A stretch of DNA of 54,405 bases, the filler included, from Streblomastix strix (lineage: Eukaryota): assembly GCA_008636045.1 (NCBI GenBank). It is 3 parts of 3 records of this genome, joined end to end, with 100 filler letters (N's around TTAATTAATTAA, not from the genome) between each part and the next. Parts side by side here need not be neighbours in the genome. Positions count along the whole stretch, not along the records: positions 36,351 to 54,405 come from SNRW01000645.1; 2 more parts are not named here. One strand, written 5' to 3'. The position numbers and the translations under genes were made by a program. Below are positions 6,291-53,500 of the stretch, piece by piece; position 1 is the first letter of the stretch; the number at the start of each line of letters is the position of its first letter. The notes under the pieces were generated by a model, which worked only from the letters and a program-made list of their open reading frames with translations, was not told the DNA's origin and searched no databases.

Positions 6291-6299
6291 ATATTAATC

Positions 6300-6764
6300 T
6301 CTATGAAGATTGACTTTATCGATATATAGAGTAAGTATATTAACATTATTTATTTTAATATCTCTTAATGTTCTAGTGCCATCTTGCATAAATTTGCCTC
6401 AACATCCTTCATCTTCTGTATTAAGTAAAATTTTGTTTTCCACTATTTCAAATGTATGTGCAATAACTCTAATTAATTAATGTTCAGACAATATGAAATG
6501 GGCTGATTCTTTAATCATATGTTCATCTTCACTAATTATATCAGGTAGCCATCGACATACTGATGGATCAGGTATTATTATTTCTTCAAATATTGATGAT
6601 ATTCTTCTTGAACGAATAGATTAAACAGACACTTTATCTTATTCCTTTTCGAATGGTGAATCAAATTCAACTATTGCTGGAATTGTCGTTACGGACTAAC
6701 GAGGAGACATTTATTCTCTTTAACTTATTTTTTCAGATGGTGATACTGATCTTTTCTATGACAT
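6300..6764 (-). pseudogene. Hypothetical viral protein (MSQKRSVSPSEKIS...) with internal TGA
   Basis: Open frame under TAR=Gln, converging on the truncated PolB end. Confidence 0.45.
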
Positions 6765-6796
6765 TTATTCTTTCTAAAAATAACTAATTGATAATC

Positions 6797-7749
6797 ATGA
6801 ATAAAATGATAAGTTTATTGGAGTCTTTTCCTCTTCCTTAGTTAGCGTATTATATGCACTTACAGCAATAAGAAACAATCCAATGTTTGCAATAGTGATG
6901 AACACTAATGAAGTTCCAACAATTATATTGAATAGCATTTCATTTATTATTAAAAATATGCCAAAATAAACTATAAAAATTAACGAATTACCAATAACGT
7001 TCAATGAAGATGGATATGATTAAATAGGTAAGGTAATGGCTTTGATTGATGCAGATAGATTAATGTATAAGAATATTATGGATTCTAATTGTATTGTACA
7101 GGATATATTACCAAAAATTAATACTAATGATGCAATTGAATACCTTAAGAATAAAAAGGTGCCATAGATCGATGAACTATACTAAGCACTATTCAAAAGA
7201 GAGACATTTAGACGTTGTAGTGTATATGTTAGTGATAAGAATAATACAAAAATAATCTCTGCAGCTAACATTAGAATCCAACATGAAAATATCGTTCCAA
7301 ATGTGCTTTAATAGTTAGTGAACTTCGCTTATGAATGTGATTAATCAAATAAGATTATGGTTATGTTTACATGCTATCTGATATACGAACGCAATCATCC
7401 CCATGAAGATAGAAATGGAAGAATGGGACCATTATTGTTTCAAGAAAATATATATAAATTCGCTGAATCATTTGTTCCTCTATCGACTGCATTAAGATAT
7501 AATAAGAAAATATAACATTTAATGAATGAAATATTCAAGAGCATCAGTTTTGGAGAAATAATGAAGAAACAATAGATCAAGAGTGGTGATGCAGCTATCT
7601 ACAGAATAGAGATACGGGAGATAGATTTGAATAAATTTTATGAGATTATTAATGACAATTAACGAACAAAGCAAAAATATTACACATTAGATTTAGAAGA
7701 TAATATCTATAAACTAATTATAAGATTATTGAATATGATTAGGGTGTGA
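6797..7749 (+). CDS. Fic/Doc-domain protein, degenerate motif; start likely frameshifted (first in-frame ATG 6883)
   Basis: YERNHPHEDRNGRMGPLLF at ~7385-7440 resembles Fic consensus HPFxDGNGRxxR; homologous to 44926-45660. Confidence 0.8.
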
Positions 7750-8255
7750 TTTATTTGTGAGCATGTGAAGCCGAACGCATTGCCGCAGAGTAACGATCCC
7801 ATGCACAATAAAAATATAGAACTCAGCGATAGGAATTCCGTGCATCTGTTAACGATTTGTAACTCCTCTTGATTCGACGTCTTCAGAAAACTATCATAAC
7901 TAACGTACAGGATTTACTTTAAATTAATGATAAAATTGATCGTTATAACTAGCCAAATAATCAATGAGTTTGATTTATTTTTATTGTTTAATAAATGTAA
8001 CTCGACGGAAAGACTTTGATTAAAAAATAAAGAGAGAAAGGATATAAAACTAGTGCATTCATATAAACTGTAATGGATTAATGTGACGGTAAGATGTAAT
8101 AGCAATAGGCAAAAAAAATAAAGATATTACATTAATGAATCAAGATAATTGGACAAATAAGGTAAATTAAAATGGATTAGTTCAATAGATCAATGAAATT
8201 ATTTTTGTCCATTAACTTTTCCCATTAATGAGTAGTAATAATAATTATAAAAGTT

Positions 8256-8414
8256 TATGGCAGGGGTCCTATTTGAAATTGATCCATTTGTTCCACATAC
8301 TAGTGTGTATGTGCTAGAATCATAGATAATATTATATAAATCTCTAGATGGAATGTGGAACGGAACGGAACAGAAATTTTTGAGTTTGTGAAAAAGTGCT
8401 GCTATATGCCATAA
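8256..8414 (-). repeat. Inverted, diverged copy of ~165 bp iteron repeat A
   Basis: Reverse complement contains TTATGGCATATAGCAG, AAAATTTCTGTTCCGTTCC, CTAGCACATACA, GTGGAACAAAT, CTGCCATA as in the copies at 8638 and 11681. Confidence 0.8.
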
Positions 8415-8637
8415 TTTGATAATCTTTCATTTTGAATCCTAATTTGAATAGCTAGTGAACTTTAAACCTAAATTATACTGCCATAATAATTCATTTATGG
8501 CAGCCATCTAAATGTTCAGCTTTCAAAATTGTTCCACCTTCATTTTTACAAATATATTGAAGGATTTTTAATTATCATAGAATCATTCATTTCCAAAAAT
8601 AATGGTCACGTCTCCAATACATCACATAAATAATTTC

Positions 8638-8805
8638 ATTTATGGCATATGGCAGATGGCAGACAAAAATTGCTGGCGTCTCTAGGATTTGTTCCGTTCC
8701 GTTCCTTGTTCCACCTAGACAAATCACTTCATTTACCCACTCCACTAAGACACACACACTAATGGTGGAACAAATCCGTGTTCCATTTTCAAAATGCCTG
8801 CCATA
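8638..8805 (+). repeat. ~165 bp iteron repeat A (ATGGCAN x3, GTTCC x4)
   Basis: Direct repeat of 11681-11846; shares CCTTGTTCCACCTAGACAAATCACTTCATT and CTAATGGTGGAACAAATCCGTGTT. Confidence 0.9.
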
Positions 8806-11629
8806 AAAGTTTGGACAAAAATAAATTCATTTCATTCTTCTTTACCTCCTATACTACCTTTTCAATGAATTCATTATCTTCAATTATTTTCATATATTTT
8901 TAGTAATTCACATTAGATGTTTCGATATCCTCTTCACTCATCATTTTATCATAATATCTCAATTAATCTTTATTTAATTTATATATTCTAGTTCTTAATC
9001 CATTAATTCTTGGTGTTTATTCTGTAAATTTATGAATCATCGCATTCTTAAAAGTTTTCAATTATCAATTCTACGGTTTGTATTAATTTACAAGAGATAT
9101 CGGAATACCTTATTTGAACCGTTCGTAATGTTCCATAATAACATCATCTATTGGAGATCGACTAACATTTATCAGTCATTTCTTTGCTTCAGTCATTGGA
9201 ATTAATGTTGGATTGAACTATGAAATATCTCTTTCAAGTAGGAATGTCACTAAATTTTCATAAATCTCTTAAATATAGCTCTAGCTTAATTCATTAAAAT
9301 ATTCAACATCTTCCTTATATTTTTCACTCACTTAATGAACAATCTTGCAAGCGCATACTAAATGACGTCTTTCATCAATGCCCAATTATACAAACATATC
9401 AGCGTTTGTTACATAGATTATATTCAATACATTCTCAGCTGTTCTTCTTAGCTAATTCTTTTCATTAATTCTTATAGTTAGATCAGAAATAATTGATTTC
9501 ATTACTGTTGCAACACCTTTCTTTGAATCATTATAATTCATTATTTCATTCTATACTGCAAACTTTTTATTTTCAAGTACTGAATTGAATTTTCCTGTGA
9601 ATTCATCTATGTTTGTTATATTAGAGCAACTATATCGACTTGTTAGTTCAGCAATCACATCAGTGAATCTATTTTTACCTATTCCTTATCTACCTTGTAA
9701 TACGATTGTTGTTCTAGACTTTTTTCCAGGATTTTGTATCAACCACGCCATCCAATTAAGAATATATTCATAAACTCGTTCATCACCCGCAGCAATAGTT
9801 TCTTTATTCAAATCAAGGTACATTTACAAGCATTCATAATCAATTGTATCTAATTTCTTATATTTATACCATTGGAATACTGTGAGAATCTTTGGATCTT
9901 CACTTATGAATTTACATCCTTTCTTAACAAACTTTTGAAGCATATATTTTAAAGATTTGTTTTACAGTTATTGGTTTTGAGTTATCTTTTTCATCAGTTT
10001 TCTTATTCTTGAAATTTTTATTAATTTTCTCTAATTATTTATAGACAGTTCCTTCTAATTTATGATATAAAACTTATGTATCGCAAATAGCATCATATCT
10101 TTTAATTGCATATATATCTTCAGTTTCACCTTCATAGTATACTAATAATCTTGTTAAATCCATAACAATTTATTCTTCATTTTCATATTCTCCATTAGCT
10201 GCTTTCTCTTACATGTCAAGTAAAGTGAAATCATCAGTTAATTCAATTTTATTTGGAATCAATGTCAAGTTAATTAATACTTATTTTTCCTTCTTTTTTG
10301 CTTCATAATTCTTTTTCAATAATGGTTTAATTGTCTATTCGTAGTAATCTTTATTATGGTATCTTAAGATTTTTGTAAGGATCCATGGATTTGGTTTGCG
10401 TTCATAATTAGATTAAGCTTATCCATAGTTCTTATCAGCGTTTACAGTTAATTTATTGAATTTACGTATGTTATCTAATCCTTTAGCTCTAATAGATTCA
10501 TTACTTATTTCATATTACCCACAGAATATGCTTAGAAGAGATACTTCCATATTGATTGGTTGTGGATAGTTATATATATCAAGATTCTTCAATCCATCAA
10601 CACACGTTTATGCAAGTTTATCATTCATTTATTCAATTGCACCGTCTTCATTGATTTATACTCCATATATTCTATCGTGTTACTATTATGCGTAATCCTT
10701 ATATGACATCTCAATATCTATATTCCATTTGTAAAATATCTCTCGCAAGCTCGCTAAACGTGATGCATTTCCCCAATCATTAACTGCTTCATATTTGAGT
10801 GTAACTCGTTAGTTATTTTTAGTTTCTCGAATAGCTGTGTTTGAAGCAACTACTCGATTCTGTAGTATCTCATTTGTCTCATATCCATTTTCAATTTTAT
10901 ATTAAATCATTTATGCAAATACATCAATATCAAAACTATCTGTTGTAGCTATTTTTACATTACGATTGGAAGGTAATCTATAATTGTTTCTATTTTAATA
11001 GATATTTAATCCTCTATGAGTAGTCTTAACTAAATCTACATTTAATGGAAGTGAATCAATTAGATTTTATCTTATTTTATCGATTTCTTCAATTGATTTA
11101 TCCTTATGAATATCTATATCAACAACACATAGATTATCTTCATCAACTAATGATAAATCAATTAATTTGCCTGTTATTTATTATTTTTTACTTTCCTATT
11201 AGCTTATTTTTGTATAGTTTACTGTATTAATCATAACATCTTTAACGCGTTCAATTATTGTTTTTGAATCTTATTCTTACATATATGATTTTGCTATCGG
11301 TTGTATCATTTCAAGAAATATATTATCATTTAATTTTTTTTCTAATCTATATGTTAATTTCTAATTTGAAATTCTTGTTTCAAGATCACTTCAGAATTAA
11401 TTAGATCATGAATGAATTCGTCATATTTTTCTTCAATAATATGCTTATTCGTAGGTTCATTTGTCTGTTCATTTGTCTGTTCATTAATCATTTGATCAAT
11501 CATCTCTTTTGCTTTCTCTTCTGCTTTCGATTTGCGAATATATTTACGTTTTGGTCCTTTCTCAAGTGTCTCACATTTCACATTTGTTTGTTGGTTTGAT
11601 TTGCCTTTTGAAAATTCTTCTGTTGCCAT
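8789..11629 (-). pseudogene. Prim-Pol (bifunctional primase-polymerase) + PriCT-like + D5/SF3-like helicase, ~945 codons, with internal TGA stops
   Basis: N-terminal VVDIDIH and VKTTHRGLNIY primase motifs (~11000-11130); Walker A IVLQGRQGIGKNRF (~9665-9710); FAVQNE Walker-B-like; TGA at ~9066 and ~9178. Confidence 0.85.
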
Positions 11630-11680
11630 TTTACTTTCGGATAAAAAGTTCATATAGTTTCTTAAAACAGTTTTTATTTA

Positions 11681-11846
11681 ATTTATGGTATATGGCAGAT
11701 GGCAGACAAATTCGTCGGCAGTTAAAATTTCTGTTCCGTTCCTTACCTTGTTCCACCTAGACAAATCACTTCATTAGCCCACTCCGCTAGCACATACATA
11801 CTAATGGTGGAACAAATCCGTGTTTCATTTATAAAGAGGCTGCCAT
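11681..11846 (+). repeat. ~165 bp iteron repeat A, upstream of the primase-helicase
   Basis: Direct repeat of 8638-8805; inverted relative to 8256-8414. Confidence 0.9.
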
Positions 11847-12442
11847 ATTTCATTTGCAGGGACAATTCACTTCATTTATCCTCACCATTAAATTTTTTCA
11901 TTGTTCCGCTTAATTCGACCGAATCATCAGTCTCATTGCTAACTTTTAACATCATATTTGTGATCAGCATATGAACATTAACTAAGAAATCAATTTTCAA
12001 ATCAATCAGAAAACATTAATTTTTCATTATATATTTTGATTTTTTATTACCTATATATTATTTTTAAAATAATTAAATAGGACATAGAAATCTCTAAAAT
12101 TTTCTCAATTTTTTATATCTCATTCATACTCTTCACTAAGGTCATATCGTATACGGAGAATTCAAAAATGATATTTATTTGTAATTCTGGACCAATTTGT
12201 CACCTTCAATTTCTTCAATTAACCTTAATTTTTATATACATTTTCCATATAAAATATTTCTTATGATTCGTCCATACGATTAATCATTTTTCATTCCCCA
12301 TGTGTAATTGAAAAACCTTGGAGATCCCCCATATTTTCTTACACTGTTTTACTACAAATAAGCAATAAATTTTTAATCTTTAAAAAATTCTCAAAAACAA
12401 AATAACTGTATAAGATTAAATTCATAAATTAATTCCCAAGTA

Positions 12443-12764
12443 TAGTAGGCAAAAGAATCTCACTGCACAATGTAATTTAACTCAAAAAATTAACTTATTG
12501 CATTAGTGATCACCATAAATTATTACCATAAATCCTTCTCATTTTTCATTTTTACCTATTTCACACCCATAAATTATTTTCATAAATCCTATATATAAAT
12601 TATATCAATAATTCATATTCAAAAAATATTTTTATTATTTATTTTTCACTGCTTCTACTGATAAACTATTTTTATTTTTCATTACAATTAATTGTATCCA
12701 CTATTGTTTTTCCGTTATTTTTAAGTTTTAATTCCATAGGGCAGTGAGATTCTTTTGCCTACTA
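12443..12764. mobile_element. MITE-like element with 24 bp perfect terminal inverted repeat
   Basis: TAGTAGGCAAAAGAATCTCACTGC (12443-12466) and its exact reverse complement (12741-12764); AT-rich non-coding interior. Confidence 0.7.
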
Positions 12765-14157
12765 CTATGGTAAATTTCAAAGAGATGAATATGAGTTTGA
12801 AGTATAATAAGATATCAATGATTAAACGTATAAAGTTCATTATAAAATGAGTCTATCAGAGTTCATAAAAAATATCTTTAAAATTGCAAAATAAAAATAT
12901 ATCGATGCTATGACAAAGAAAGTTGATGAAATAGTTATTGAAAAACGAACTGTGGCAGATTTGTATTATTATTATATTTCAGTTTAATCATAATATGAAC
13001 CTTCAAAATAAAAAATAAATAAAAAAATAAAAAAATTGAAAAAGACGCATAATAAGCGGTTTATATATCCAGCCAGTAATCTGCTTAAGGTGGCGATAAT
13101 GAAAATATGCCCTATTTTCCTTTCAAAACAAAATGAAAATTGGTTAAGAAAATAAATTAACATAAATATACAAACAATAAATATGTATCGGAAAATGATT
13201 ATAAATTAAAACCATTATAAAGGCTAAAACGACTTTATTTCTCTGTAAAGTTAAAAAGTTGGGAAATAGATATAGTTTTTTCAATCGATTTAATCTTGTA
13301 AAAAAACAATGATAAAGGTGATGATGCTATCTTTGAATAAAATAAAGTATAAAATATATGAGAAAAAAGAAGAAAAACAATTATATATTTATTTTTTATA
13401 AACATTAACACATAATATTTAGTGATATTTCAATTGATAGATAAATCAGCAGCATAAGTAGTTGGATAACTATAAAAATTAATTATAATTTTTATGTGAA
13501 TAAAATTAGTGGTGATAGTGAGAAAGGATTTAATAGCTCGTGTTTTGCATTTTTTGTCCATAGAATAAAACTAATGGATATTTCACTGAATCAAAATTCA
13601 CTAATCATAATCGAGTTGTCGAATCAAATATTCGTACAATATGGAATATGTTTAGTTAAAAATTTAATTATTTTTCAATAATTCAATAAATGTAAATAGT
13701 AGTTGATACATACAATAATACACAACATCTTGCGTTTCAAAATAAGTATAGTCCGTATTAAGTTTAATTATTAAGAGATTTAGAAGGATAGTATATACGT
13801 TCATAAATGAAGAAATTAGAGCGATAATTAGCAAGACAACGAAAACACTGCATATTGTCATTTAAAGTAGGAAGCATAATATTAATACATCTTGATTTCT
13901 AACATAATAAAATTTTATGAAATAAAGGCAAAATTCCAATAAGTTAGCGGAGGTTACTCGATACGTAAATGGAAATGTTTTATACAGATCATTGAATCAT
14001 TCATATAAAATAAATATAACAAAAATACCTTCATTTTATTGTAAATATGTAAGTAAGAATATATAATCTCTTCCAGAATATTTTGCTTCAGAGTTTTTAT
14101 TTAGATGAAATAATAAAAATTTATTTATTTATTTTTTAACTTTTTTTCCCATAATAA

Positions 14158-14514
14158 ATGGCAGCTATTGAGACAATCAACGATACAACCAATTAATCAT
14201 TACAAACTAAATCAGCCGCAAGCGAAATCTACGACAAAGTGTTTTCAACAAAACAAGGACGTCAAAAGAAATATATCGATAAAGAATAAGCATTTATTGC
14301 TGCTAGAGAACAACGCAAAAATGTAGGAATTAGAAACGAATAAGATTAAATAAATTATGTTTCTAAAGTTAATTATATGCAACTACTCATAATAAAAAAA
14401 CTTAAAAAATTAATCGAAATTTTAAACAATTTGATTATAATTAATGAGTTGATTAAAAAGAATGAAAATAAATTAGGCATTAATGAAGATATTAATGATT
14501 TAATCAACATATGA
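14158..14514 (+). CDS. Small basic 118 aa protein with AT-hook-like KQGRQKKY motif, possible DNA-binding protein
   Basis: ATG..TGA in frame with TAR=Gln; sits on the other side of the iteron inverted repeat from the second primase-helicase. Confidence 0.55.
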
Positions 14515-14669
14515 AACGCTAATCGATTTGTTTTTTCATGTGTGTAAGTGTGCAGAGTTGAGACCCCTAAAATGGTCAAAATATAAAAAATTGGTCGGTA
14601 CGTCGGTCGAATTTATTTTTGTGTTAGTATATGTGTTAATCATGGTAATTGAATCTAAATGTCCACTTT

Positions 14670-15150
14670 CATTATTTCTGTCTTATTTATCTTGTACTTT
14701 TATATGTGATGTTCATTAGCTATGGAGAATTAGATCTAAATTCAATACAAGACAGAAAGACAAGACAAGAATGAAAAGTAAAAGATACCAAAAGTTGCGG
14801 GACATACAGACAGTTAAACAGATTGAGATTCCATCCTTAATTCGACATAAAACATATTGGAATGAATATTATAGCTTAGAACCAACATAATCGGTACAGA
14901 TATATGTAAACATATTGATTCTAATACATCAACTATATATCATACATTATTTTTTACAATCTGTCCAACTGTCCATCTGTCCATCAACTTTAAACGATAA
15001 AATTTTTTCTGTCTTATCTTGTCTTTTCTGTTACAACTAGGATTTCACATTAATCTTCCATGGCTAGTGAACATCACTGATATTATTAAGACAGAATAAG
15101 ACAGAATCTGTCATAACAAATATTTCACATTAATTCTCTATAGCTCATGA
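14670..15150. repeat. Imperfect inverted repeat B (~14670-14830 vs ~14960-15100) with GTCTT/AAGAC pentamers and CTGTCCA heptamers
   Basis: GTGATGTTCATTAGCTATGGAGAATTA (~14706) pairs with TAATCTTCCATGGCTAGTGAACATCAC (~15051); AAGACAGAAAGACAAGACAAG pairs with CTGTCTTATCTTGTCTTTTCTG. Confidence 0.75.
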
Positions 15151-15159
15151 ACAAAAATA

Positions 15160-16740
15160 ATATTCATTCATTTTGTAAAATATTCAGTTGAAATTTCTAT
15201 TTTCTCTTATTCCTCACGTAATTCATCTTTATCTAAATCATTCATCATATCATCATAAATTGAATAATTTTCTTCTAGTAATTTATATACCCTAGCTTAT
15301 TTTTTATCAATATATATTCTTTGCTCAGTACATTTTTGCAAGATCGAATGCTTGAAGCTTCGTTCATTGCAGTTATTTGGTTTCATTAAGCTTACCTCTG
15401 ATATTGGAATGCTATCTTCAAATTTCTAATAGTTTTGATAATAATATCATCAACTGGTGTTCGACTAACATTTAACAAATATTTTTTTGCATCAATCATA
15501 GGAATATTGGTTGGATCAAATTTTGAAATATCTCTGTTTAGGAAGAATGTTAATAAATTATCATAAAAATCTTTATCCATTCTTTTGCTCAGCTTATTGA
15601 AATATTCATGATCTCCTCTATGAACTGCTTTGCATTTTATCACTAAATAGCGTCCATCACTATTATCCAATAGGATTGAATAGTCATTGTTAGTTAATAT
15701 AATTGAATTGATTACATTCTCAGCTCTTCATTCTGGTTAATTATTCTCATTAATTCTTATAGTTCTATCTGTAATTATTGTCTTCATTGCTTGTGCAGTA
15801 CCTTTCTTGGACTCGTTATAATTCATCATTTCATTTAGAACTGCAAACATTATATTCTCAACAACTGAATTGAATGTTTCTGTGAATTTTTCGATTGTAG
15901 AAATGTTTGGTTGACAATATAGTGAGAACATTTCTGAAATAGCATCTATGAATCTATTTTTACCAATTCTCTGAAGTCCTTGAAGAATGATAGCTGTTCT
16001 AGGATTTTATCCAGCAATTTAAGCAATGAATGCAATCCAATTAAAAAAATATTCAAAAACCTCTTTGTTTCCACCTGCTATTGTTCCATATGTCAGATAA
16101 TTAATGAACATATCAATCTTTGATTCATCAACTTATTCTAATTTTTCATACTTAAATCCTTGAAAGACATTGAATACATTCGGATTATCTGAATTGAATC
16201 TAACTCCTTCAACAACATATTATCCACTATATTTTTCGAAAATATCTTATACTGTTATATGTTTTTTACCATCATCCCATAATCTAATTATGTGCATTTA
16301 TTCATATGCGTTAGTCTTTGTTTTTTAGCGTATTACATTAGTCTCTTATTAAGCATCATATTCTTTGATTATAAACACTAATCCAGATTCACCAGCATAG
16401 TATCTAATTACGTTAGTTAAATCAGTTGCAATATCTACTTCTTATTTATACTCTCCTCTTGTTACTTTCTCACTTATGTTTCCAAATATGAATGAATCAT
16501 TGATGTCAATTCCTTATTTTTCAATCATTTCCAGATTTATTTCATGTTTTGATTTATTTTTTTTTGTAATCTCTTTTTGAACAATGGTTTAAGAGTTGTT
16601 TCGTAGTATTCTTTGTTATGAAGTTTAATAATTTTCGTTAGTATCCATGCATTAGCTCTGCTGGAATATCTTCCTTTTCTATCGCTCCAATGTTCATTTG
16701 CCTTAGGTGTGAGTATATTATTTCTATAAATATTCAAAGA
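15160..16740 (-). pseudogene. Second D5/SF3-like primase-helicase, 5'-truncated (primase domain absent), frameshifted
   Basis: WILTKIIKLHNKEYYETTLKPL, Walker A ILQGLQRIGKNRF (~15950-15990), FAVLNEMMNYNESKK, DGRYLVIKCK; clear paralogue of 8789-11629. Confidence 0.85.
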
Positions 16741-18075: not shown

Positions 18076-18175
18076 NNNNNNNNNNNNNNNNNNNNNNNNN
18101 NNNNNNNNNNNNNNNNNNNTTAATTAATTAANNNNNNNNNNNNNNNNNNNNNNNNNNNNNNNNNNNNNNNNNNNN
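18076..18175. other. Artificial contig spacer
   Basis: 44 N + TTAATTAATTAA + 44 N. Confidence 0.99.
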
Positions 18176-26240: not shown

Positions 26241-26377
26241 TTTTTTGAATAATTATTCATTTATAAAAACTTTTTTTATGAAATTTTAATTTTAGTATTA
26301 AAAGGATAATTTTCTTTTAAATTTTATACTAAATAGGATGAGTGTAAATGAACTCATTGTTTATACTTAAAATAATA

Positions 26378-26745
26378 ATCATTATAAACTTTAATAAACT
26401 CTTGAAGAATTAATTAACAATTTGGTAAAAAGTCAAAAAACAAAGCCACTTATATTTTCTAGATAAATTTTTCTAATTTTAATTTTCAAAATATTGTTTA
26501 TTTATTCAAATCTCTACAAAGACAAACAAAATATTGATCCAAAATCTCGAACGGAATTCTCGAACTTGCACAGATTTTCCCTCCACATTCATAGATCTAA
26601 ATTATGTATTCTACATATTTAATTATCAAAATTTTATAATACTTAAATTAAACACCCTTTTTAACTATATTAATAGTTTCATAAACCTTGTATTTGACTT
26701 TGAACAAATATTTTTAACATTTAACTTTCTACAATAAATATTTTG
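26378..26745 (+). repeat. ~370 bp element, near-identical inverted copy at 33652-34021
   Basis: Long near-identical stretch including GATCCAAAATCTCGAACGGAATTCTCGAACTTGCACAGATTTTCC; both copies give the same spurious 67-aa ORF. Confidence 0.95.
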
Positions 26746-26774
26746 TTATTTATTTATAATATTTTTTATTAAAG

Positions 26775-33620: not shown

Positions 33621-33651
33621 TTATTCTATCAATATTTAAATAAAATTTAAT

Positions 33652-34021
33652 AAAATATTTATTGTAGAGAACTAGATATTAAAAATATTTGTTCAAAGTC
33701 AAATACAAGGTTTATGAAACTATTAATATAGTTAAAAAGGGTGTTTAATTTAAGTATTATAAAATTTTGATAATTAAATATGTAGAATACATAATTTGGA
33801 TCTATGAATGTGGACGGAAAATCTGTGCAAGTTCGAGAATTCCGTTCGAGATTTTGGATCAATATTTTGTTTGTCTTTGTAGAGATTTGAGTAAGATAAT
33901 ATTGTTTTGAAAATTTTACTTTTATTGATTTATTTAGAAAATACTAATTACTTTATTTTTTTGACTTTTCACCAAATTGTTAATTAATTCTTCAAGAGTT
34001 TATTAAAGTTTATAATGATTA
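33652..34021 (-). repeat. Inverted copy of the ~370 bp element, upstream of the RRM gene
   Basis: Reverse complement of 26378-26745. Confidence 0.95.
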
Positions 34022-36250: not shown

Positions 36251-36350
36251 NNNNNNNNNNNNNNNNNNNNNNNNNNNNNNNNNNNNNNNNNNNNTTAATT
36301 AATTAANNNNNNNNNNNNNNNNNNNNNNNNNNNNNNNNNNNNNNNNNNNN
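36251..36350. other. Artificial contig spacer
   Basis: 44 N + TTAATTAATTAA + 44 N. Confidence 0.99.
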
Positions 36351-36481
36351 CATAGATTTAGGGGTATATTGTTCATGCTATTGATTTAAAATTACCTATA
36401 TCCACTAGGGGCTTGAGCTATCCATTCAACGTAATCCTTTTCACTATCATTGTTGATTATTTACAGACCTATTTAAGTCAT
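36351..36481 (-). CDS. 5' fragment of a viral hypothetical protein (MTQIGLQIINNDSEKDYVEW...)
   Basis: ATG following AAAA, open to the contig edge. Confidence 0.4.
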
Positions 36482-36513: not shown

Positions 36514-37335
36514 TCAGTGGATTGATCTCTCGGAAATGGTCTATCTAATTTGATTCATTATCTCATCTACATCTTAATCATTAGGTATAGTGAAACCAAG
36601 ATTCATCATTATAATACCTCTTTTATTTAACATATCCTTAATGACATGGTCAATTGATACCGCTATTGGTAAATTATTTATATAAATAGTTGATCTTTAC
36701 TCTATTAAAGGATATTTATTGATACTATTTTTATGTAATCTATGGACCTTATAATACCTCCCATCAATGTCTTCGTTAATGAGTTCAACTGAGTATATAT
36801 AATCATATTACTTATCTTAAGGTACTAATCTAGGTTCCATTTGTTGTATTGTATTACTATAGTCAATGTTCTCACGTTAAAGCTGTTCAATTAATCTACT
36901 TGTATTAACCTCAAAGGTAATGTGTGTTTGTTAGCTATTTTCGTTAATTGAGTCCATTATATCTGTAACAATATCAAGATATTTAATATTTGTTTTCATA
37001 CAGATGATATTAACTAATCTTGGATTAATATATGTTCCTCTAACTTCATTTATATATTCATTGATTAATTGATACTCACTAAGTGTGGAGAGCTAGCTGG
37101 TTTTCAAGCCAGCCCACTTATCGTTAATAAATTGCTTATATTATTTGTATAATTGAGTTGTAGATATATTCTTTAATTACTTATTTGGTTATTCGAGGTC
37201 ATTAATCTTTTATACTAGTTTCGCTGCATTAATGTATCCATCTTAATCTCTTATCATTATCTCAAATCCATTATATGTTCCGATAGTGAAGGTTTCGTTA
37301 TTGGATGTAATTTTAGTTGCTGTTGGGTTAGTCAT
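36514..37335 (-). CDS. KilA-N domain protein (273 aa)
   Basis: GTYNGFEIMIRDQDGYINAAKLV ... VRGTYINPRL, hallmark KilA-N motifs; intact frame. Confidence 0.88.
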
Positions 37336-37364: not shown

Positions 37365-37719
37365 AAATGAAGTGTAAAAATAGAATAATCGTAGATTCTT
37401 AACTCGATGAGTTAATTCAAAGTACATTAATATCGTTAATGATCTGGTTAATTGTATCATTTAAAATCCTTTCATTGGTTTATATATTATACATTCGACA
37501 TAATGGGATCATTTGCTCTAGTTTATTAATGATTCGTTATTTAAGTATAGTTTTATTCTATTTAACTGTATCCCATAATTCCGTTTGCTAATCCATCAAT
37601 TACTTTATCATTAATATTTGTTCGTTATGTTTAATAAGCTATTACTTGCATTTAGGATTCTAGCATTCTCCTTAATCTATATTTCCGTTGAGTTATGAAG
37701 GCTATAAGTCATAATCCAT
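37365..37719 (-). pseudogene. Small viral hypothetical protein, probably frameshifted
   Basis: MDYDLQPSQLNGNIDQGECQNPKCK... open frame under TAR=Gln. Confidence 0.4.
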
Positions 37720-37769: not shown

Positions 37770-38327
37770 ATATCACATTATCATATCCTTATTTAACTCT
37801 CCAATTATATCCTATTCTAATACTATTATTTATGGATTTAATTAACATTTATTTTCCTTTTCATATTATTTTCTCCTCATCTATTGAATCTCACTATATG
37901 TATACCTAGATTATGGTTCTCCTTCAATGTCGGAATAATTAGTATCATTAACGTTTTTAATACTATCTTATTATAATTTCTTATCATACGCAGCTTTGAT
38001 TTTCTATTCGATGTTATCTTACTATAATTACCTATCATTATCTGCTTTGATTTTCTATTCGATGTTACGATTCGGTTCCGAAAATTATAGCTAACCAGTC
38101 AGCGATGATGGCTTTGCTAAGCAAGTAGATTAATGAGGTGATAATCGAAGATTCTCAGACAACTAGTTGGCTGATTAGTCCGTAGTCTATTATTCAAGCA
38201 ATTTATCGAGTTTCTCATTTATATCATTTAATGACAATGCTATCTCGAATTGCTATTATGTTTCCTCTATCATCTTAAGTATTTTACGCATGTATTCATT
38301 TATGTCATATATATCATTCTTATCCAT
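37770..38327 (-). CDS. Viral hypothetical coiled-coil protein with internal NIEQKIKA duplication
   Basis: MDKNDIYDINEYMRKILKMIEE...; 51 bp-period direct repeat at ~37994/38045; 3' end uncertain. Confidence 0.45.
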
Positions 38328-38359: not shown

Positions 38360-38569
38360 TCACTTAGGTCCATTAATGTATCGATCAACTCCACCAGCTA
38401 TCCGTTACCCTACTCCCATAGCTGCTCCTACTCCTGGATGAATCATACAAACTGGACCTGCTAATGTACCCAATACCTTATTCAATGTTGGGGCAACCCA
38501 ACCTGCAGCTTTAGTTATACCTCCTAATATTTTGCTACCGAAATTTTTCAATCCAGACCAAAAATCCAT
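38360..38569 (-). CDS. 69 aa Gly-rich amphipathic protein resembling the adenovirus protein VI membrane-lytic helix
   Basis: MDFWSGLKNFGSKILGGITKAAGWVAPTLNKVLGTLAGPVCMIHPGVGAAMGVGQRIAGGVDRYINGPK*; intact; divergent from the putative MCP. Confidence 0.75.
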
Positions 38570-38629
38570 TTAATATAATAAAAAACTAATCGATTAATAT
38601 GTCTAAGCTGTTTATTTTTTGTAATCTAA

Positions 38630-43580: not shown

Positions 43581-43970
43581 ATGAGTATTATTTCATTAAT
43601 CATGTCAATATTCAATTATGTATTCTATGGAGCTAATTTTTTGTTATCTGTTATTAGTGTATCAATACCTGATCAAGCGTAAGAGCTAATCAATGTATTT
43701 AAAAAGCTATGGAGTTATCTTGATGTGATAGTGATACCGATTAATATTGTAATCTATATTGTTAAATTCTTCTATCATCGTAAAATGCAAATTAACAAGG
43801 ATCACCATTGGAGTTAATATACTATTGATGAGCTGTATTAGTTGATATAATTAGCTATAGACGCTAAGGATCTTAAATTAGCCTAGCATTATCGATACCT
43901 GATTACTTTAAAATTGATTAATTAAACCAATTAAAATGAGTCTATCAGAGATAAAGCAAATATAGTTTGA
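43581..43970 (+). CDS. Small predicted membrane protein
   Basis: MSIISLIMSIFNYVFYGANFLLSVISVSI...VIVIPINIVIYIVKFFY, two hydrophobic segments; 3' end overlaps the ATPase start. Confidence 0.5.
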
Positions 43971-44972
43971 TACTTATAATATGCTAGATGAATATAAAAC
44001 TCGTCCATTAACGTCTAAATCAATCTTCCTTATTAATGCAAACCATTATATAGTAGGAGCTGTTAGAAGTGGTAAAACAACATTAATGAGTAAATTAATC
44101 GTGTTGTATAAACATATAATTAACCCCTACATACTATACTTCTCAAATATGGGACCAGATGAAAGTATGTCGTTTAATATGAACGATAAAATATAGCAAT
44201 TAATAATATAACTTATGATACTGCGATGATGTTTCTGCCTTAGTTCGATGAGATTAAATACAAGGTTAAAGAGATATATACCTATTGGAAATTAAAGCAA
44301 ATTAATTTCAAATACAATAGTGATTACATTAAATAACTCAAGTAGAATATGATTAATGCAAATGAGTTAAAGAAGGATGAATCGTATCAATAGTTTACAT
44401 CTCGAATGAAGGAGTAATTTAAGACCTATTGTATTGAAACAATTAACGAATATAATTAACCCACGAAGCTAATGTAATGTACTATCCCACCGTTAATATA
44501 GAATGTAAGTTATGAGAAAACATTAAAAATAATAGACACAGAAGAGATTGTTGAAGATGGTGTATCGATAATCAAAACACTAAAATTACCTATACTATAG
44601 AATGCACGATTGTTATCTTCATTAATGATCTTTGATGATATTGGTTCAAATACAGATATATAAAGATATACTTCATAGCTATCTCGTACAATAATTCATC
44701 TCGTTAGTGATAATCATCATTCTAAAAATACCTTATTCTTTGTAGCTTAACGTCCTAGCTATATGTTCAAGACAGCTCGCATCTTATGTCATGTAATAGT
44801 TATAGGAACAGGGATATCCGATAATGATATCAAGTAAATATACAATGAGAATCATATTAACACCTTGTCTGAAGAAGAACTAATAATTCTATATAATATG
44901 TTTCATTAATAAGAGTTCATTATCATCAACAAGTATGAGAATAGGTTTGAGTTAATTAGATAAGACCATTGA
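43936..44972 (+). pseudogene. A32/FtsK-HerA-like genome packaging ATPase, one frameshift (~44210)
   Basis: Walker A IVGAVRSGKTT, Walker B LMIFDD, NHHSKNTLFFVAQ and downstream KTARIL motifs. Confidence 0.88.
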
Positions 44973-45660
44973 TTTTAGAAGTAATTTCATCATTCAAATC
45001 GAGATTATAATATTGATCACGAGTTCGTTGATTATTGTTAATTAGCTTAAGAAATTTAACTTTATCTTCTATCTATATCTCATAGCGACATATAACATCA
45101 TCATCTGTTTTTATCTGATGTTTTTTCATTATTACATCGTACATTAATTTATCGTCATCAGTATCATTACCCTTAATGTAATTGAATATATCGTTCATTA
45201 ATTTCTTCGCTTTAACGTTATACCTTAATGTAGTGGATAATGGTATGTTATATATCTCCAAGAATAATAGTCTCCCTATTCGACCATTACTATCTTCGTG
45301 TGGATGTACGCGTTAGTAGATTAGAAAGTACTTGAATTTAGTGACAGGATCATTGGTCTAATGAGCCTTGTTCACTAGCTCCTGTAGATAAAGTGGATCG
45401 ATTAATTCATGTCTAATTCCTACGTTATCTGCTGATATTATTTTTGAATTATTCTTACCACTAACGTAAACACTACATTAGCGATGTACGTGTTACATCT
45501 TAGGAAATATCAGTCTATATACTTCATCAATATTAGGGTATGTTTTATCAAATATGTATTAAATTGCTTCATTAACTGTTTCATTAGGTATGAAACCCTA
45601 TTCGATGAAATTTGAGTTCATTATACATTGTTTTAAGTAAGCTGCATCTATATTATTCAT
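44926..45660 (-). CDS. Fic/Doc-domain protein (244 aa), intact frame
   Basis: IYQRVHPHEDSNGRIGRLLFLE at ~45255-45320. Confidence 0.87.
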
Positions 45661-45804: not shown

Positions 45805-46851
45805 TCAATTTATGGTTGAAAAATTATGTAAGGCATATGAATCATACACCTAAACACAGAATAGATCGGGAAAATTTATCTAACACAGTGTATTGATTCT
45901 AACATGTCCATCCACATCAATGTAACAGTCTATCGGTATAGCACCATTCCAGCATATAGGATATCCCAATACCTTCTACGCAAACATAACAGCATTAAGA
46001 GGTATAGTAAATGGTGTACTAGTAAATTAAGGTTTAGCTTCATCCTTAAACACAGAGAACAATGTATAGGTTGATTATGTCTAAGTATTAGGATTGTTGT
46101 GTGTTATTTACAATGATATATAAGCCCTTCCATTATATGTAGTAAATGAACCCCAAGCTAATGATTCATACATACCATAAGCGATTGTTGATTTGATAGC
46201 GTTTTCAATTGGAGGAGTTGGTAGGGGTGATACTAACTAATTATTGAACTTGAGTTAAGTGCAATCGAAATCGATAACCAATCCCTTGTAATCATAAGCA
46301 TAATCCTGTTATTTTTGTACCATGAATTATGATAAAGTCGATCCCATCTTCCATACTCCATCGCTATCAGTTGGATCGTTATTACAACCCGTTAATACGA
46401 AGCTATCCCAGTTCGCTTTATTTTTCATTATCCTAAGCCCTTAATTACGAATATCATTATCAGGTTCAATTATCATCTACTCCATAGCATGAGGATAGTG
46501 TTTAGGTAAGAAATCACCCACATCAGTTATATCTCCATTAGCTAATAGTAATTAGTTATCAGTACCATTAGTCTTGATGAATTAATCGGCTTAGACTGAC
46601 TGTGTGAATTATTTATATCCTGTTACCATTTGATCAGTATCTAGTGTCATTAACTTAGATAAATTGACATTTGTTTTCATGTATTAGCTAAAGTAAGTAA
46701 TCAGTTTAATAATCTCGGAGTCAATGAAACTGGTTAACGATTTTTATAGCTTCTCTAATTACTTTACTTCCTCTTATTTTTACTATATCTCTTACAGCTA
46801 TTGTTATATATTTATTAACTCCTCATCAGTTGGTTCGATTAATAAATTCAT
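45805..46851 (-). CDS. Second, shorter fibre-like protein (348 aa)
   Basis: Coiled-coil N-terminus; TLDTDQMVTGYKQF and QFIKTNGTDNQLLLANGD share repeats with the long fibre; beta-rich C-terminal head. Confidence 0.7.
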
Positions 46852-46869
46852 TTTAACAAAAATAAACTG

Positions 46870-47516
46870 GTCAGAATTCATTTATATCAATCTCTGATGC
46901 AGGTTTATCTGATAGTCTAACGAAGTCCTTATTGACTCTATATAACTTCTCAACTGAGTTTCAAAGCACATTATCAATCACACTAATGCTTACGTTTTTA
47001 ATTAATACATCTATTACTCTAACAAGGTCTTTCTTCTTATATTTCTTAGTCATACATGAATGCGATTACATCAATGGTTCCTCTAATATGATTTTTATAT
47101 CATCCTCGTTTTCTTATATGATTAATGACCAGAATTTAATGAAGTTATCGCTATTCAATATGAAGTCATCCCCTCGCTTTCTTGATGTAGTTACTCTCCA
47201 TATGCAATCGATAACGAATTTAAGGACCTCTAGATTTGGATGTGCTAAGAATGTATTTTTAACCACTTACTCTGGTTCAACTTAAGCATTTTCTCGTTCT
47301 ACTTCTTAGTATTTATTTTTATTATAATGTCTCTTAGGTTTATCTTCTTTGATTAATTCAGCTTTAATTTCCTATGGAGCTGATAAGTTTCTCAAGGCTT
47401 AATCAATTGATTATAATCTAAGTTTATCTTCTTCTGTTAATTCTTTCTTCATGTCTTCGATTTGTTTCTTTGATTTACTCATACGGAGTTAATTCCTCTC
47501 GATACTTGAAATCATT
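46870..47516 (-). pseudogene. Viral hypothetical protein with internal TGA
   Basis: MISSIERNQLRMSKSKKQIEDM... open under TAR=Gln. Confidence 0.45.
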
Positions 47517-48114: not shown

Positions 48115-50545
48115 TTTCACATCATTGTAACAAGGAGGGGGAGTCCTTTGTAATCAAAATGTTTAATTATATCAAATAATCGATATGGTCAACGAGTAGG
48201 AGGTCCTTGAGGGAAGTCAATTACATGCGTTAAAAGGGTACCATTTAAAAATGATGATATATCTTTGTATATGGTATGAATTGATGCTTATTGTTATCTG
48301 CCTAGGATAAAACGGTGATTAGTCCTATGGTTCGTGAAGACCGTTTATTTTTAAAAATTATAGTTAATTTGGTTATTTATTCCGTAGATTTTGTGGATTC
48401 GTGGGAGCGGGTAGATTTGGGCTATTATCCATACGATTTTGAAAATGGTGCTAATTTCGCCAATAATATCTTCTAACCGAACCTATATGTAGACTTCAAT
48501 TACTTAATTCCACAACATAAGACACCTCACAAATCTTTTTCACTACACCCTTAACAACAATACTCACCAGTACCCATACTGAAAGAAATATTGCTATATT
48601 TAGACCAATTTCCCCTGAAGACCCACGAGGAAGCAAGGAAAAAGAACCTAAACGATAACAACCGAAACCACAACAATATGCAAGACTAATAGATGTAGTT
48701 GAAAGGTTCAAAGAAATAATGAAGCTAATAATTGAAGAGAAAAAGAAGAAACCCAAGGTTATGTTGCCCGGTTTATACAAAGAATATCAAAACAAAGACG
48801 ATCCTGTTATTTTCTACCCACCTAAGAAGTATCATCCATCCCCAATACACAGATCAAAAGACGTAGATCTCTCAGAAGATCAATGAAATTTATTTGATGA
48901 GGGACGTACGCGAGGGCGTAATCTCCATTTTATCTTTGACTAATCGACAACCTCGAAGCTTGAGCGAATCTACCAAAGGGATCATACATACAAGGGTTAC
49001 TAAACATCAGTGATGTAGTGGCTGGATTCTTTAACATACACCCTCAAATATACCAATCAAAACTTGAAGCAATAAGAGGCTTAATCATATTCGCCGCAAA
49101 ACAAATTGTGCAATCAGAGACATAAAGTAAAAACCAAAAACAGTTATCGAATAAACAAGAGATAATCGTAGCTGTTGGAACAAACGACAATGAAGACAAT
49201 GACTAATCTGAGCACGCAATCAAACCCAAGAACTTCACAAACGGAAACGATGGTCTCAGAAAGAATGATAGCGGGACGCAGTTACAGGCCACTGTCAACG
49301 GAGAAGCGAAACCCAAGATCAGTATCACATAAATATCTACCAACACTCCACCTCACAATGTATTCGGATCAGACAGACTCGTAGGAAACGGTTGAGGGAC
49401 GCAGGTACAGGCATAAACCAACAAAAATGGAGACTTAAATCATCAGGCAATAGATAAACAAGCAAATAAAACAATAGCGAGCAAGCTATTGTTAATAGAA
49501 CCAGAGAAAAATAAAATAACTAAATATCACGCAATGAAAGCCAAAATGAACAAGAAATTAAACTTCTAGACAATGGAAATACTTTACTAAAAGTGACTGG
49601 ATCACTTCGCACTACCCTTTCCGAACAAGAACTAGGAAATCAAAACATTTCATATTCTAGAAGCTAACCACCCTTAATCGCCATCCCTCCAGAATTAGAC
49701 TAAGTTAAAGGGAAAATTGTAGTACCTAAACAAAGGATGCAACCAAATAACGACCTTGATACTAGAAGCAATACAGGCTAACCAAAAACCGTAGCTGATA
49801 AATCCTTAGGGAATCCCGAGCCTAGAGCCAACATCGACATTTCTAAATATTTTATATTCTAGTAGGAGCAGAGAAAAAGGCAGATATAGCACCAGTTAGT
49901 GAAGACAAGTCTGCAAAACATTCCAAAGGCAACAATACCAGTGTAGGATCCAAGAAATAGAAACAAGGATTCAACTCCGAAAACCAGATAGAAATAGAGC
50001 CTGAATTCGAAACTGACTAGTCGGATTAGTTGGACTGAGTAAGAAGGAAAGGAGGAAAGAAGGATGGGCAGAGATCTTGTGAACCGTGAAATGAACAAAG
50101 AGAATAAAGGAATATTAGACACGATTACGGGAACAGATAGTTAGATACTTGGAATAATGGGATACAATTAAATTGATTGATTTCATCTAATAAGGATATA
50201 TTCTCGAATGATAAGATAACTAATGTATTAATAAGTTACAATGTTAGTTAAAATTAATGAAATTTAGGGGAACAAAAGAAGAAGCGAAAGAGTATAAGAT
50301 AAAGTTTGAAGAATAATTGAAAGAGAGTATTGTAGTACCGATCAGAAAGTAATGAATCAAATGGTATAACCCAATATTCATGTTAAAGAAAGCAAACGGG
50401 AAATGGAGAAAGATACTGGACGCGAAAGCATTGAATAAATAGATTGCAGACTTCCACTTCAAAATGCACGATTCGAACGAGGTGAAACAAATAATTAGAC
50501 TTGGAGATTCGGGCACTTCACTGGACCTCTCCTCCACATTTCCCT
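48115..50545 (+). mobile_element. 5' part of a DIRS/Ngaro-like retrotransposon (gag-like region and RT N-terminus), truncated
   Basis: Shift to higher GC and A-skew; RT segment follows. Confidence 0.75.
50125..50545 (+). pseudogene. Reverse transcriptase N-terminal fragment (DIRS-like)
   Basis: WYNPIFMLKKANGKWRKILDAKALNKQIADFHFKMHD...TSLDLSSTF; breaks before YxDD. Confidence 0.88.
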
Positions 50546-50549
50546 TCTA

Positions 50550-53500
50550 AAATCAACTTCATCACTAAAAGAACTTATTGAGCTTATGTTTTTATATCAT
50601 TTTTATTTGCGTTGCTCAAACCTAGACCATACTTATTTTTTGGTTCATTCAGATAACTGTAATATGATAATAGTTTAACTTTGTCTTTCAATGCATATAT
50701 CATTATTTGATTATTCCTTTCAGAACCAACTAATAGCAGTGTTAGAAGTAAATGCAACGATGGAACTAGATTATCTTCTTAGCTCAAGATCTTCAATTCA
50801 TAATCATTATCAAGAATCATATCGTGATTATCTATAAATAAATATGATTAATATAAATCAAAGATATAAATCATAATCAATTATAGATATATAATGTATG
50901 TTTATTAATAATATTATATATAAATATGATAACCATTAATATACCTGGGCAATCAGCCAACAGCTCAATATACTACTAACTGTTATTATAAATACTCTTA
51001 AGCTGATTAATTATCTCAGGTCCTGAATTTTAAGGAAGAGGATATGCTTTGTACAAAGAAGCGATAATTTAAGCAATTGCTTCTCTTATCTGTTATTTAG
51101 TATCACCTTTTCCTACTTCTATAAAATATTTGATAAGTTCATCAATAGTTCCATCATAAGCCAGAGGTTACCTCAATGGATGCTATTCTCCACCTTGAAG
51201 ATATTTCATTCCAATATTAAACAGTCCATCAAGTATTCTACGAGCAATGAAAACAACATCTTCATCAGCAGACGTGAGCATCTTCAGCACTATTGGCACT
51301 ATTCCTTTTTGAATTAATTTTCTCTTCTGATCAAATGAAAGTTGTTAGATCAAATATAAGATTAGAGATAGATTGTATGATTTGATGATAGGAAGAGGGT
51401 TATTATTGTGTAGTTTGAGAATGTTAAGAATGAATTCAGTTTCAAACACAATCATATTATTTCTTGACTGATTGTTATATATCAGTGATTTGATTATTTC
51501 TATTACGATGAGCATCAATCTTTCTTCCCCAAATACTTCAATTTCAGCCATTTCAATGTCATTTTCATAATTATCTTATTATTATCCAAATACATCTTCC
51601 TTATCTTCATTATCATTATCAATATCATTTACTCCACAATCTCTTTCTATATCAATTTCTCTATTTTAATCACTCTCATACTCTTATTCATCTGCATTGG
51701 TTCTCCCGAAGTATAAAATACGCATTAATTCTTTCAAGTTCTTTCTAACCTTAACACTCTCTTTATCAGATTCGCCTTCTTCATTCAATCTTTTTAATTG
51801 ATACATCTCATCTTCATATGAAATTATTGAATAAACTTCTGCTTTATCAATATTCTCATTGCTGGATCTTATAATTTCTTCCTAGCCAACTTCATACGTA
51901 ACATGCATTTATTCTTATTCATTTTCTTTAATTTATTCTATTACTTGATCTTTCAAATTATTATATTTACCCACATTTTTCTTCATCAATTAATCAAACA
52001 CTTTAAATAATTCATCAATCAATCTTGCTCTTATTAATTAATTTATATATTTGTTAACCTTATTAATAACTGATCTTCTTATTCTCATCAGTTTATCCAC
52101 TGTTTCTGGATAAATCAAAAAAGACTCGAGAATTTGTGTTTCATTCTTATAATCATTCCGAACCACTAACTTCTTCAGTGTTTTTGTCCTAATTTCTTAT
52201 TTCATGAGATATTGAGAGTATTCACTGCTAATGATGTAGATGTTACTGAGAAATTTGATCAATGAGTTGATCACGATTGACTCTACTTCATTTTTTGTCG
52301 TTTTCTCTATATCAATATAATATGTGGAAATAATATTAATAAATCACTAACAAAAATAAATTTAATTTATTATATATATCAATTAATTAAAAAAAAAGTA
52401 AACAAAAATAGTATACCTGAGAATATCAATAGCATTATCAAGGTATCCTTCTTCAATAATTGCATCATAATTTTCTGAATGGAATATTAATGTTATTAAT
52501 ATCAATGTAAAAAATAATATAATTAATATTATAAAAAATATCATTTTTCATTCTTTTATTAAGTATTAATATTTATTATTCATCCCTTTGTTTATAGAAA
52601 TAAATGAAAGAGCTCCAAATGATCCTTCTTACTGCATTTCATCTTATGAATTTAGCGTATTGAATCCATTGATTACTTAATCATGAAGTTATGAAGGGAG
52701 TTGAGATCCTTCAATATAGAGTGTATCAAGGAATTTGCATGTCAGTCTTTTATTCTAACTGTCTATATTTTAATTTGTAAACATTTCAGTGATTATTGTT
52801 TAAATTATCTCACGTTTATGAAGATCTGTAAAATAAGGATGTTATTGTTTGAGAATTTCTTATAAATTAGATTATTACTCAGATTATTCTAATTATTTTC
52901 ATCCATTTTTACGATGTATATGAAAGTTAGGAGAATGAACAATTGAATGTTCTTATTATTGTTGTGGAGCTTTGGGGTAAGTACCTGAAGTATACCTGAT
53001 TCGTATATCCTTTGTATTTATTCAAATGTTTCTTTCTGACATATTTAGAATAAATGCAATATTCTCGCTGTTGATAATTGAAATGTAGGAGTTCACTATA
53101 TTTGGCCAATAAGTTCATCTAGTAGTCCTGATTATATAACATTATCTATATCCTTCTCCCCATGTATTAACCCTTCAGGTTTTTGATCAATTTTGCTAAT
53201 AATTTTCTTTGCGAAGTTCTCCTATTCATCAGAAATTTTTGATTAAGCGCCACTCACTATTGTTCTAGTTGACATCAAGAATTTTCATAATTTATTCATG
53301 ATTTATATTGATGATTATTATGTATCTTTAAAGAAGAAATTTCATCATTAATTTATGTAAATTAGTTAAAAATGTCTCGTTGATTATATTACTTCTATTC
53401 AGAATAAATTTCTCTGACTAAAATTGCGAGTACTTCTTAATTCTGCATAGTGTATATTCCTAACTTCATAATATAAAAAATAAAGCAATTAATATAAATA

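Follow-up and report, generated by a model that had tools for sequence, protein, structure and literature searches.

A putative entry peptide encoded beside the likely capsid gene of Streblomastix polinton-like elements

Adenovirus protein VI (pVI) is a protein of about 230–280 amino acids (aa) with a C-terminal protease cofactor and a PPxY motif. It has a propeptide, with its lytic motif at about residue 41, and its gene lies just upstream of the hexon gene on the same strand. Residues 34–54 are described as membrane-lytic, inserting at the membrane surface and rupturing it by curvature (PMC8156859, PMC4113798). A second membrane-active segment has been proposed in the virophage mavirus, whose protease cuts the tail of the capsid protein after Gly-Gly and whose first tail fragment is proposed to hold an amphipathic helix that ruptures the endosome; the passages of Born 2018 concerned (PMC6048507) liken this processing to that of pVI with no sequence match given, report the tail fragments as undetected in mavirus virions and, in the supplement, give a divergent sequence for the first fragment.

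A third group comprises the membrane-active core (“Macc”) proteins of polintons and adintoviruses (PMC8502044, PMC11071296, 10.1101/341131), described as pVI/pX-like by Welch 2020 and Buck 2024 and including Cupiennin-like proteins, PLA2X, GasderminX and, in the Fig. 6 legend of Starrett 2021 (PMC8502044, where the cupiennin-like proteins also are described), a gene labelled “VI” in protist MELD viruses. By description only, this class has the same proposed role and the same virus supergroup as the peptide reported here; with such labels in print, entry-type peptides in this supergroup are not a new idea. The accounts, as far as their accessible text goes, leave Streblomastix unnamed and draw no tie to virophage capsid tails. 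For membrane crossing in other groups, SLATT pores or lipases are proposed in a 2025 paper (PMC12220804), and neither “pVI” nor “amphipathic” occurs in Krupovic 2024 (PMC11161782). In our incomplete coverage of the literature, we found no paper stating a sequence match between virophage tails and pVI, and neither a free, protease-independent form nor the match to virophage tails, either of which supplements might hold.

The polinton-like elements of Streblomastix strix themselves were placed in a Metamonada group by Bellas 2023 (PMC10120064), with the same host label, capsid family context and code (TAA/TAG = Gln) as our locus; the available text makes no mention of this peptide. In the part seen of a 2026 preprint (10.64898/2026.06.19.733378), the Metamonada elements are still unplaced, and a protease is a core gene in Gosseviruses only among the major polinton-like groups. 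Does a Streblomastix element, then, carry an entry peptide of its own, and is that peptide kin to the virophage tail, to pVI or to neither?

The peptide gene, its family and its element

Streblomastix strix is a protist of the termite gut. The window analysed here, 54,405 nucleotides (nt) from assembly GCA_008636045.1, consists of three contigs joined by N spacers (18076–18175 and 36251–36350), and the peptide gene stands on the third, among these features:

36514..37335, minus strand: KilA-N domain gene (Pfam PF04383, E=6.8e-12)
37773..38327, minus strand: gene with no Pfam match, downstream of the peptide gene, which it follows in other copies too (5 of 94 longer models)
38360..38569, minus strand: 69-aa peptide gene (NCBI table 6); predicted helix 2–42, Pro hinge, helix 44–66; net charge +5
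38510..38563, minus strand: cationic amphipathic helix, residues 3–20, with the motif common to virophage capsid tails and pVI; hydrophobic moment 0.60
38570..38629, no strand: AT-rich 60-nt spacer between the divergent start codons
38630..40595, plus strand: likely capsid gene, broken; 76–83% identical to the intact 656-aa homologue P0037
41329..43596, minus strand: fibre-like repeat gene in several pieces, named from its repeats; no informative Pfam match
43936..44972, plus strand: packaging-ATPase-like gene in two pieces, named from a Walker A motif and weak AAA/ATPase Pfam matches (E about 0.005)

The preliminary description of this DNA had claimed an intact 69-aa ORF, missed by the ORF track, head to head with a putative major capsid gene. 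The ORF is there at 38360–38569 with the N-terminus claimed, and it is open under NCBI table 6 only (TAA/TAG = Gln): under table 11 the TAA at codon 55 would end it, which rules out a standard-code reading and would explain why the ORF track overlooked it. Codon alignment indicates that table 6 is the right code for the locus, since 35 of the 39 TAA/TAG codons of the adjoining capsid gene match Gln in the intact homologue. The frame itself looks coding, with a GC content of 0.52/0.51/0.23 at codon positions 1/2/3 and a codon score above those of the other two minus frames and equal to that of its own antisense mirror.

Judged from its relatives, the gene is a member of a multi-copy family in S. 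strix polinton-like elements. The label Streblomastix strix is carried by 29 of its 32 non-self matches, and conservation among copies, which the preliminary description had set as a test, is seen in 179 distinct full-length copies of 64–72 aa. Positions 3, 4, 7, 10, 14, 15 and 18 hold Phe, Trp, Leu, Ile, Val, Met, Ala or Cys in 97–98% of these copies, and residues 3–20 prove strongly amphipathic, as had been supposed: their hydrophobic moment of 0.60 (0.60 also in virophage tails, 0.57 in pVI) is matched by 0.3% of shuffles, and their charge is +3. The polar face of this first helix is rich in Lys, Gly and Ser and almost free of acidic residues, the N-terminal aromatic pair is kept, and the AlphaFold model (pLDDT 64) has helices at 2–42 and 44–66. 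Position 2 is Gly in 149 of the 179 copies and Asp in the copy at 38360–38569, a substitution absent from the preliminary description. Gly2 being conserved in the family, N-myristoylation was considered; the usual pattern for that modification disfavours Phe at position 3.

Among 1.84 billion representative sequences, 84 matched the peptide; no virophage capsid was among them, and no pVI either, the best score being 18.9 bits where true pVI reaches at least 116. The peptide matched no family in Pfam or PHROGs, its model found no match among viral structures in a fold search, and its Atlas similarity was 0.89–0.98 to its own Preaxostyla clusters and 0.75, which is chance level, to the pVI cluster. 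No free-standing relatives emerged from IMG/VR, where six loci proved to be two from one phage tail gene and four short frames, and further candidate loci had the look of shadow frames (nine of nine). More distant free-standing relatives do occur beyond the S. strix assembly, as metagenome proteins on contigs of 0.5–5 kb (P0184, P0190, P0193, P0194, P0195 and relatives), for which hhalign gives 99% in a set chosen with the same profile; in P0184 the helix is preceded by a leader of 7 residues that closes with Gly-Gly, resembling a minimal precursor.

That the peptide comes from a polinton-like element, as had been claimed, is supported. At 36351 the element is cut off by the end of the contig, and with its capsid gene, fibre-like gene and ATPase-like gene all broken, this copy is unable to make particles by itself. 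A four-sequence profile found no protease in the window (best E 0.43), where the element is incomplete. The same element also holds a Fic-like gene (44926–45660, minus; weak Pfam match, E 0.016) and a second fibre-like gene (45805–46971, minus), and past its right end, at about 48200–50700, reverse-transcriptase-like fragments recognised by eye are apparently the remnant of a retroelement. The first contig bears another decayed element (about 2400–16700), with polymerase-B-like pieces at about 2400–6313 (plus), recognised by eye and unsupported by Pfam, a Fic-like gene at 6493–7749 and two primase-helicase-like copies with DUF5906 matches at 9176–11390 and 15728–16693 (minus). On the second, a pair of inverted repeats (26376–26765 and 33631–34021; 331 nt at 89% plus 65 nt at 98%, about 6.9 kb apart) possibly marks transposon ends.

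What stands on the other side of the spacer? The gene starting at 38630 is likely a DJR major capsid gene, a label that draws on database annotation, Bellas 2023 and a structural model: “Major capsid protein” is the UniRef label of 11 of its 81 longer homologues, and the model of the intact homologue P0037 (pLDDT 44) finds DJR capsids at all of its top Foldseek ranks, Sputnik best (E 7e-5), at TM about 0.2 and Z of at most 5.4. Since that model is poor, the capsid label is likely rather than proven. The gene is broken at two points, with a frameshift near 39340 and, at 39981, a TGA in frame, a state that the preliminary description had left out. In IMG/VR, no Streblomastix-type capsid appeared among 56 pattern matches.

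The start codons of the peptide (38569) and capsid (38630) genes face away from each other with 60 nt between them, the head-to-head layout that had been claimed, and the spacer may serve as a shared two-way promoter; a bacterial promoter scan, whose model is not applicable to this host, gave chance level. Synteny across copies, which had been proposed as a check, is borne out: among the clusters listed, a peptide tag lies at ±1 from at least 28 of the 162 capsid locus tags, against a null mean of 1.6 and a maximum of 7 in 10,000 shifts. Peptide and capsid identities co-vary (Mantel rho 0.69, 0 of 9,999 permutations; n=20 pairs, 8 of the 28 having been dropped as short or fused models), and among distant pairs they stand at 59% for the peptide and 57% for the capsid. 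The head-to-head layout is, by this count, common, since 16 of the 94 longer gene models that include the peptide have antisense capsid sequence in front of it; 23 continue directly into the fibre-like gene, 5 into the gene at 37773, and 40 match nothing else in the window. Complex prediction without alignments for an intact capsid and its neighbouring peptide scored 0.00, which favours neither reading.

Likeness to virophage capsid tails and to pVI

The closest counterpart that we found is the first fragment of the C-terminal tail in the major capsid proteins of Sputnik-type virophages, which corresponds to MCPC1. Motif-seeded scans yielded confirmed matches in 3 of 252 stretches from metagenomes and in 6 of 232 from viruses (two contigs being in both lists), all of them at the C-terminus of Sputnik-type capsid proteins, and the last residue of the mature Sputnik capsid protein aligns immediately ahead of the motif. 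As a control for circularity, 48 loci were chosen by jelly-roll motifs alone and 6 with cut ends were dropped; in the 39 distinct proteins obtained, the tail starts at the motif site. Their 38 distinct tail fragments have F at position 2 (36/38), S at 4 (33/38), K at 7 (29/38), F at 9 (31/38) and G at 10 (29/38), and 27 of them have at least 7 of 12 residues in common with peptide residues 2–13. A profile built from 32 tails, the six first found through the motif being left out, gives a median of 25.5 bits to the Streblomastix peptides, 15.8 to pVI and 10.6 to fungal repeats, and across the window it ranks the peptide ORF first (28.4 bits, 6.6 for the next). All 28 IMG/VR matches to the pattern of GG plus motif are Sputnik-type capsid tails. 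The copy at 38360–38569 matches three virophage tails exactly, at 12 of 12 residues with Asp2 included; Asp2 being rare in the peptide family, we leave this match out of the evidence.

Does the likeness reach past the motif? For virophage tails, hhalign against the Streblomastix peptides falls from 97% to 65% when the motif is removed, and they alone keep a signal, the other sets giving 1–5%. The tails so treated have a median of 2.9 bits; the best, L141, matches the peptide along its whole length at 15.6 bits (0 of 300 shuffles; one tail of 49), and the nearest controls are a phage gene at 10.6 and fungal repeats at up to 13.4 (reversed, 13.1). An [HN]P hinge occurs in 25 of the 38 tails and in 161 of the 179 peptides, and Pro in none of 31 pVI segments. 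Tail and peptide are alike in their starting motif, amphipathic helix, Pro hinge, second Gly/Ala-rich segment and place in a DJR capsid module (a likely one in Streblomastix), and they are of similar length, the tail having a mean of 49 aa to the next G-x-G. They differ in that the tail is fused to the capsid behind a GG/GxG site, freed by a protease and followed by basic fragments, whereas the peptide has a gene of its own, divergent from the capsid gene, and lacks both a cut site and a basic tail. None of 162 Streblomastix capsid proteins has a C-terminal tail, so the peptide likely fills that role as a separate, protease-free gene. Most full-length Streblomastix capsids end in Gly, like the mature Sputnik protein, which is at most suggestive; profile comparison of Streblomastix with virophage capsids found no similarity (0.6%).

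With pVI the likeness is shorter. The stretch LWSGIKNFGS, which had been named as pVI sequence, is present in PDB chain 6yba_U, the sole match at E<=10 when the PDB is searched with the single peptide sequence (E=6.8); in profile searches pVI appears at E 0.7–4, ranked below designed helical bundles. Peptide and pVI have in common about 9 of 10 lytic-helix residues with a WSG[IL]KNFGS core, an amphipathic helix of similar hydrophobic moment and charge, and a gene adjoining the major capsid gene. The likeness spans about 12 residues: hhalign drops from 95% to 1% when the motif is removed from a pVI set of 31 distinct segments that were chosen by the motif itself, and the 179-copy profile gives motif-removed pVI at most 1.4 bits. 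Pfam MCPVI (PF02993) matches neither the peptide nor 63 family members, and it gives a true pVI control (L012) 224 bits. Unlike pVI, the Streblomastix ORF begins at the helix and ends within 64–72 aa (69 here), has no PPxY, and is divergent from its capsid gene. In other words, homology to pVI, one of the two readings put forward, is unsupported beyond the motif; on these comparisons the peptide is not a member of the pVI family, and pVI is an analogy.

Three further observations belong beside these profiles. A frame at 37472–37708 (minus), which lies downstream of the peptide gene at a distance of about 650 nt, reaches 16.4 bits on the pVI profile (the peptide, 16.3) by matching the second conserved stretch of pVI; the 100-aa ORF that it overlaps (37417–37719) tiles better between its neighbours, composition is undecided between the two frames, and the match is probably chance, a split pVI-like gene being the alternative. 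A tailed-phage gene (L117:5001-5963, and L120), whose tail module also includes a tape-measure gene, is a candidate for a membrane-engaging tail-tip protein. Two fungal-type secreted precursors, P0178 and P0188 (the latter labelled Antrodiella citrinella), carry amphipathic repeats in tandem, every one preceded by an SGA motif, and are possible precursors of cytolytic peptides.

What the peptide may do and where it may come from

We think it probable, though well short of assured, that the peptide is a capsid-linked amphipathic entry peptide of Streblomastix polinton-like elements. Peptide and capsid would be co-expressed across the 60-nt spacer; Met1 would be lost, Met being removed ahead of Gly, and Gly-Phe-Trp/Phe thereby exposed; the peptide would be packed inside the particle and freed by uncoating in an uptake vesicle, where helix 1 would insert at the membrane surface and rupture it by curvature, as described for pVI residues 34–54, so that the genome could reach the cytoplasm through the broken membrane. 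The virophage and adenovirus helices are exposed by a cut after Gly-Gly; translation of the Streblomastix peptide starts at the helix, and hence no maturation protease would be needed. It also has no pVIn-like propeptide to account for its packaging, which counts against this reading. Of the preliminary reading as an entry peptide of a protist polinton-like virus, then, conservation, capsid linkage and amphipathicity speak for the role, and pVI homology beyond the motif is unsupported.

The same helix type is found in the secreted fungal repeat proteins P0188 and P0178, so a lytic role outside the virion would fit the helix equally well: the peptide could help the virus leave the host cell, or act as a toxin on competitors or on bacteria of the gut. 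It resembles an antimicrobial peptide, with cecropin as the named Atlas cluster nearest to it (0.78, chance level) and a weak Pfam match to a frog peptide in one of 63 family members, and it lacks a propeptide that would hold it inactive. We consider such a role unlikely, given the capsid linkage and co-divergence, the fibre-like gene often on the other side, an N-terminus that by eye is not signal-peptide-like, and best viral counterparts that are virion parts. Or the hydrophobic face might lie on capsomers rather than membranes, as an internal scaffold or cement; a scaffolding role has been proposed for the virophage tail in the account of Born 2018 (PMC6048507), and whole-length conservation equal to the capsid's fits a protein interface. 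A polar face so rich in Lys, Gly and Ser and so poor in acidic residues, together with a conserved N-terminal aromatic pair like that of the known lytic helix of pVI, makes this decidedly improbable.

Where does the motif come from? On a shared origin of the peptide and the virophage capsid tails we are evenly divided; similar helices in phage tail proteins and fungal repeat peptides tell against reading the sequence likeness as proof of common ancestry, whether with the tails or with pVI. The widest claim, that peptide, tail and pVI are one lytic module that changed places, being now the C-terminus of a capsid protein, now part of a gene upstream of hexon and now a gene on its own, we find doubtful. 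An IMG/VR census of the exact 8-residue pattern, in a collection dominated by phages, gave 51 loci, 40 of them pVI (36) or virophage tails (4), the remainder being 8 long phage ORFs and 3 apparent shadow frames; the motif falls a few residues after a Gly-Gly protease site in pVI and tails (G-S-G in one tail), the virophage and adenovirus proteases are described as having common cleavage motifs (PMC6048507), and all three genes adjoin or form part of a DJR capsid gene. Yet the 36 pVI matches are a single lineage, the pVI set was selected by its motif and, with the motif removed, gives 1% against Streblomastix and 0.3% against virophages, an unrelated-looking frame of the window equals the peptide on the pVI profile, and the first tail fragment of mavirus is divergent. 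The motif may instead be a convergent optimum for N-terminal membrane-attack helices, the peptide being unrelated to tails and pVI, a possibility to which we give slightly less than an even chance. The tailed-phage tail-region gene begins with nearly identical 11 residues and reaches 32 bits on the Streblomastix profile (the maximum among 38 virophage tails is 30.9); all six examined of the eight long phage ORFs are tail proteins; hhalign gives 93% for fungal repeats and 96% for phage segments, both sets chosen by likeness; Streblomastix and virophage capsids have no profile similarity; and a simple split of a capsid tail would leave the gene downstream, whereas it is divergent. Convergence accounts less readily for the virophage set alone keeping its hhalign signal without the motif, for the full-length match of L141 or for the hinge that tails and peptides have and pVI segments lack.

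The preliminary description had looked to this locus for a bearing on the origin of adenoviruses from polinton-like ancestors; with pVI homology unsupported past the motif and the virophage tail nearer, that bearing is indirect and unproven. If descent were shared with pVI, the source of one adenovirus-specific core gene would be explained; a single-module origin, if true, would trace that gene to the C-terminal end of the capsid protein in a polinton-like ancestor and reveal which peptide virophages use for entry. The peptide is a short, synthesisable candidate, and its sequence links it to a fragment of virophage capsids with a predicted lytic role, a link that makes both testable in a liposome assay. 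For Streblomastix itself, a conserved entry-type peptide supports the view that these elements have been real viruses.
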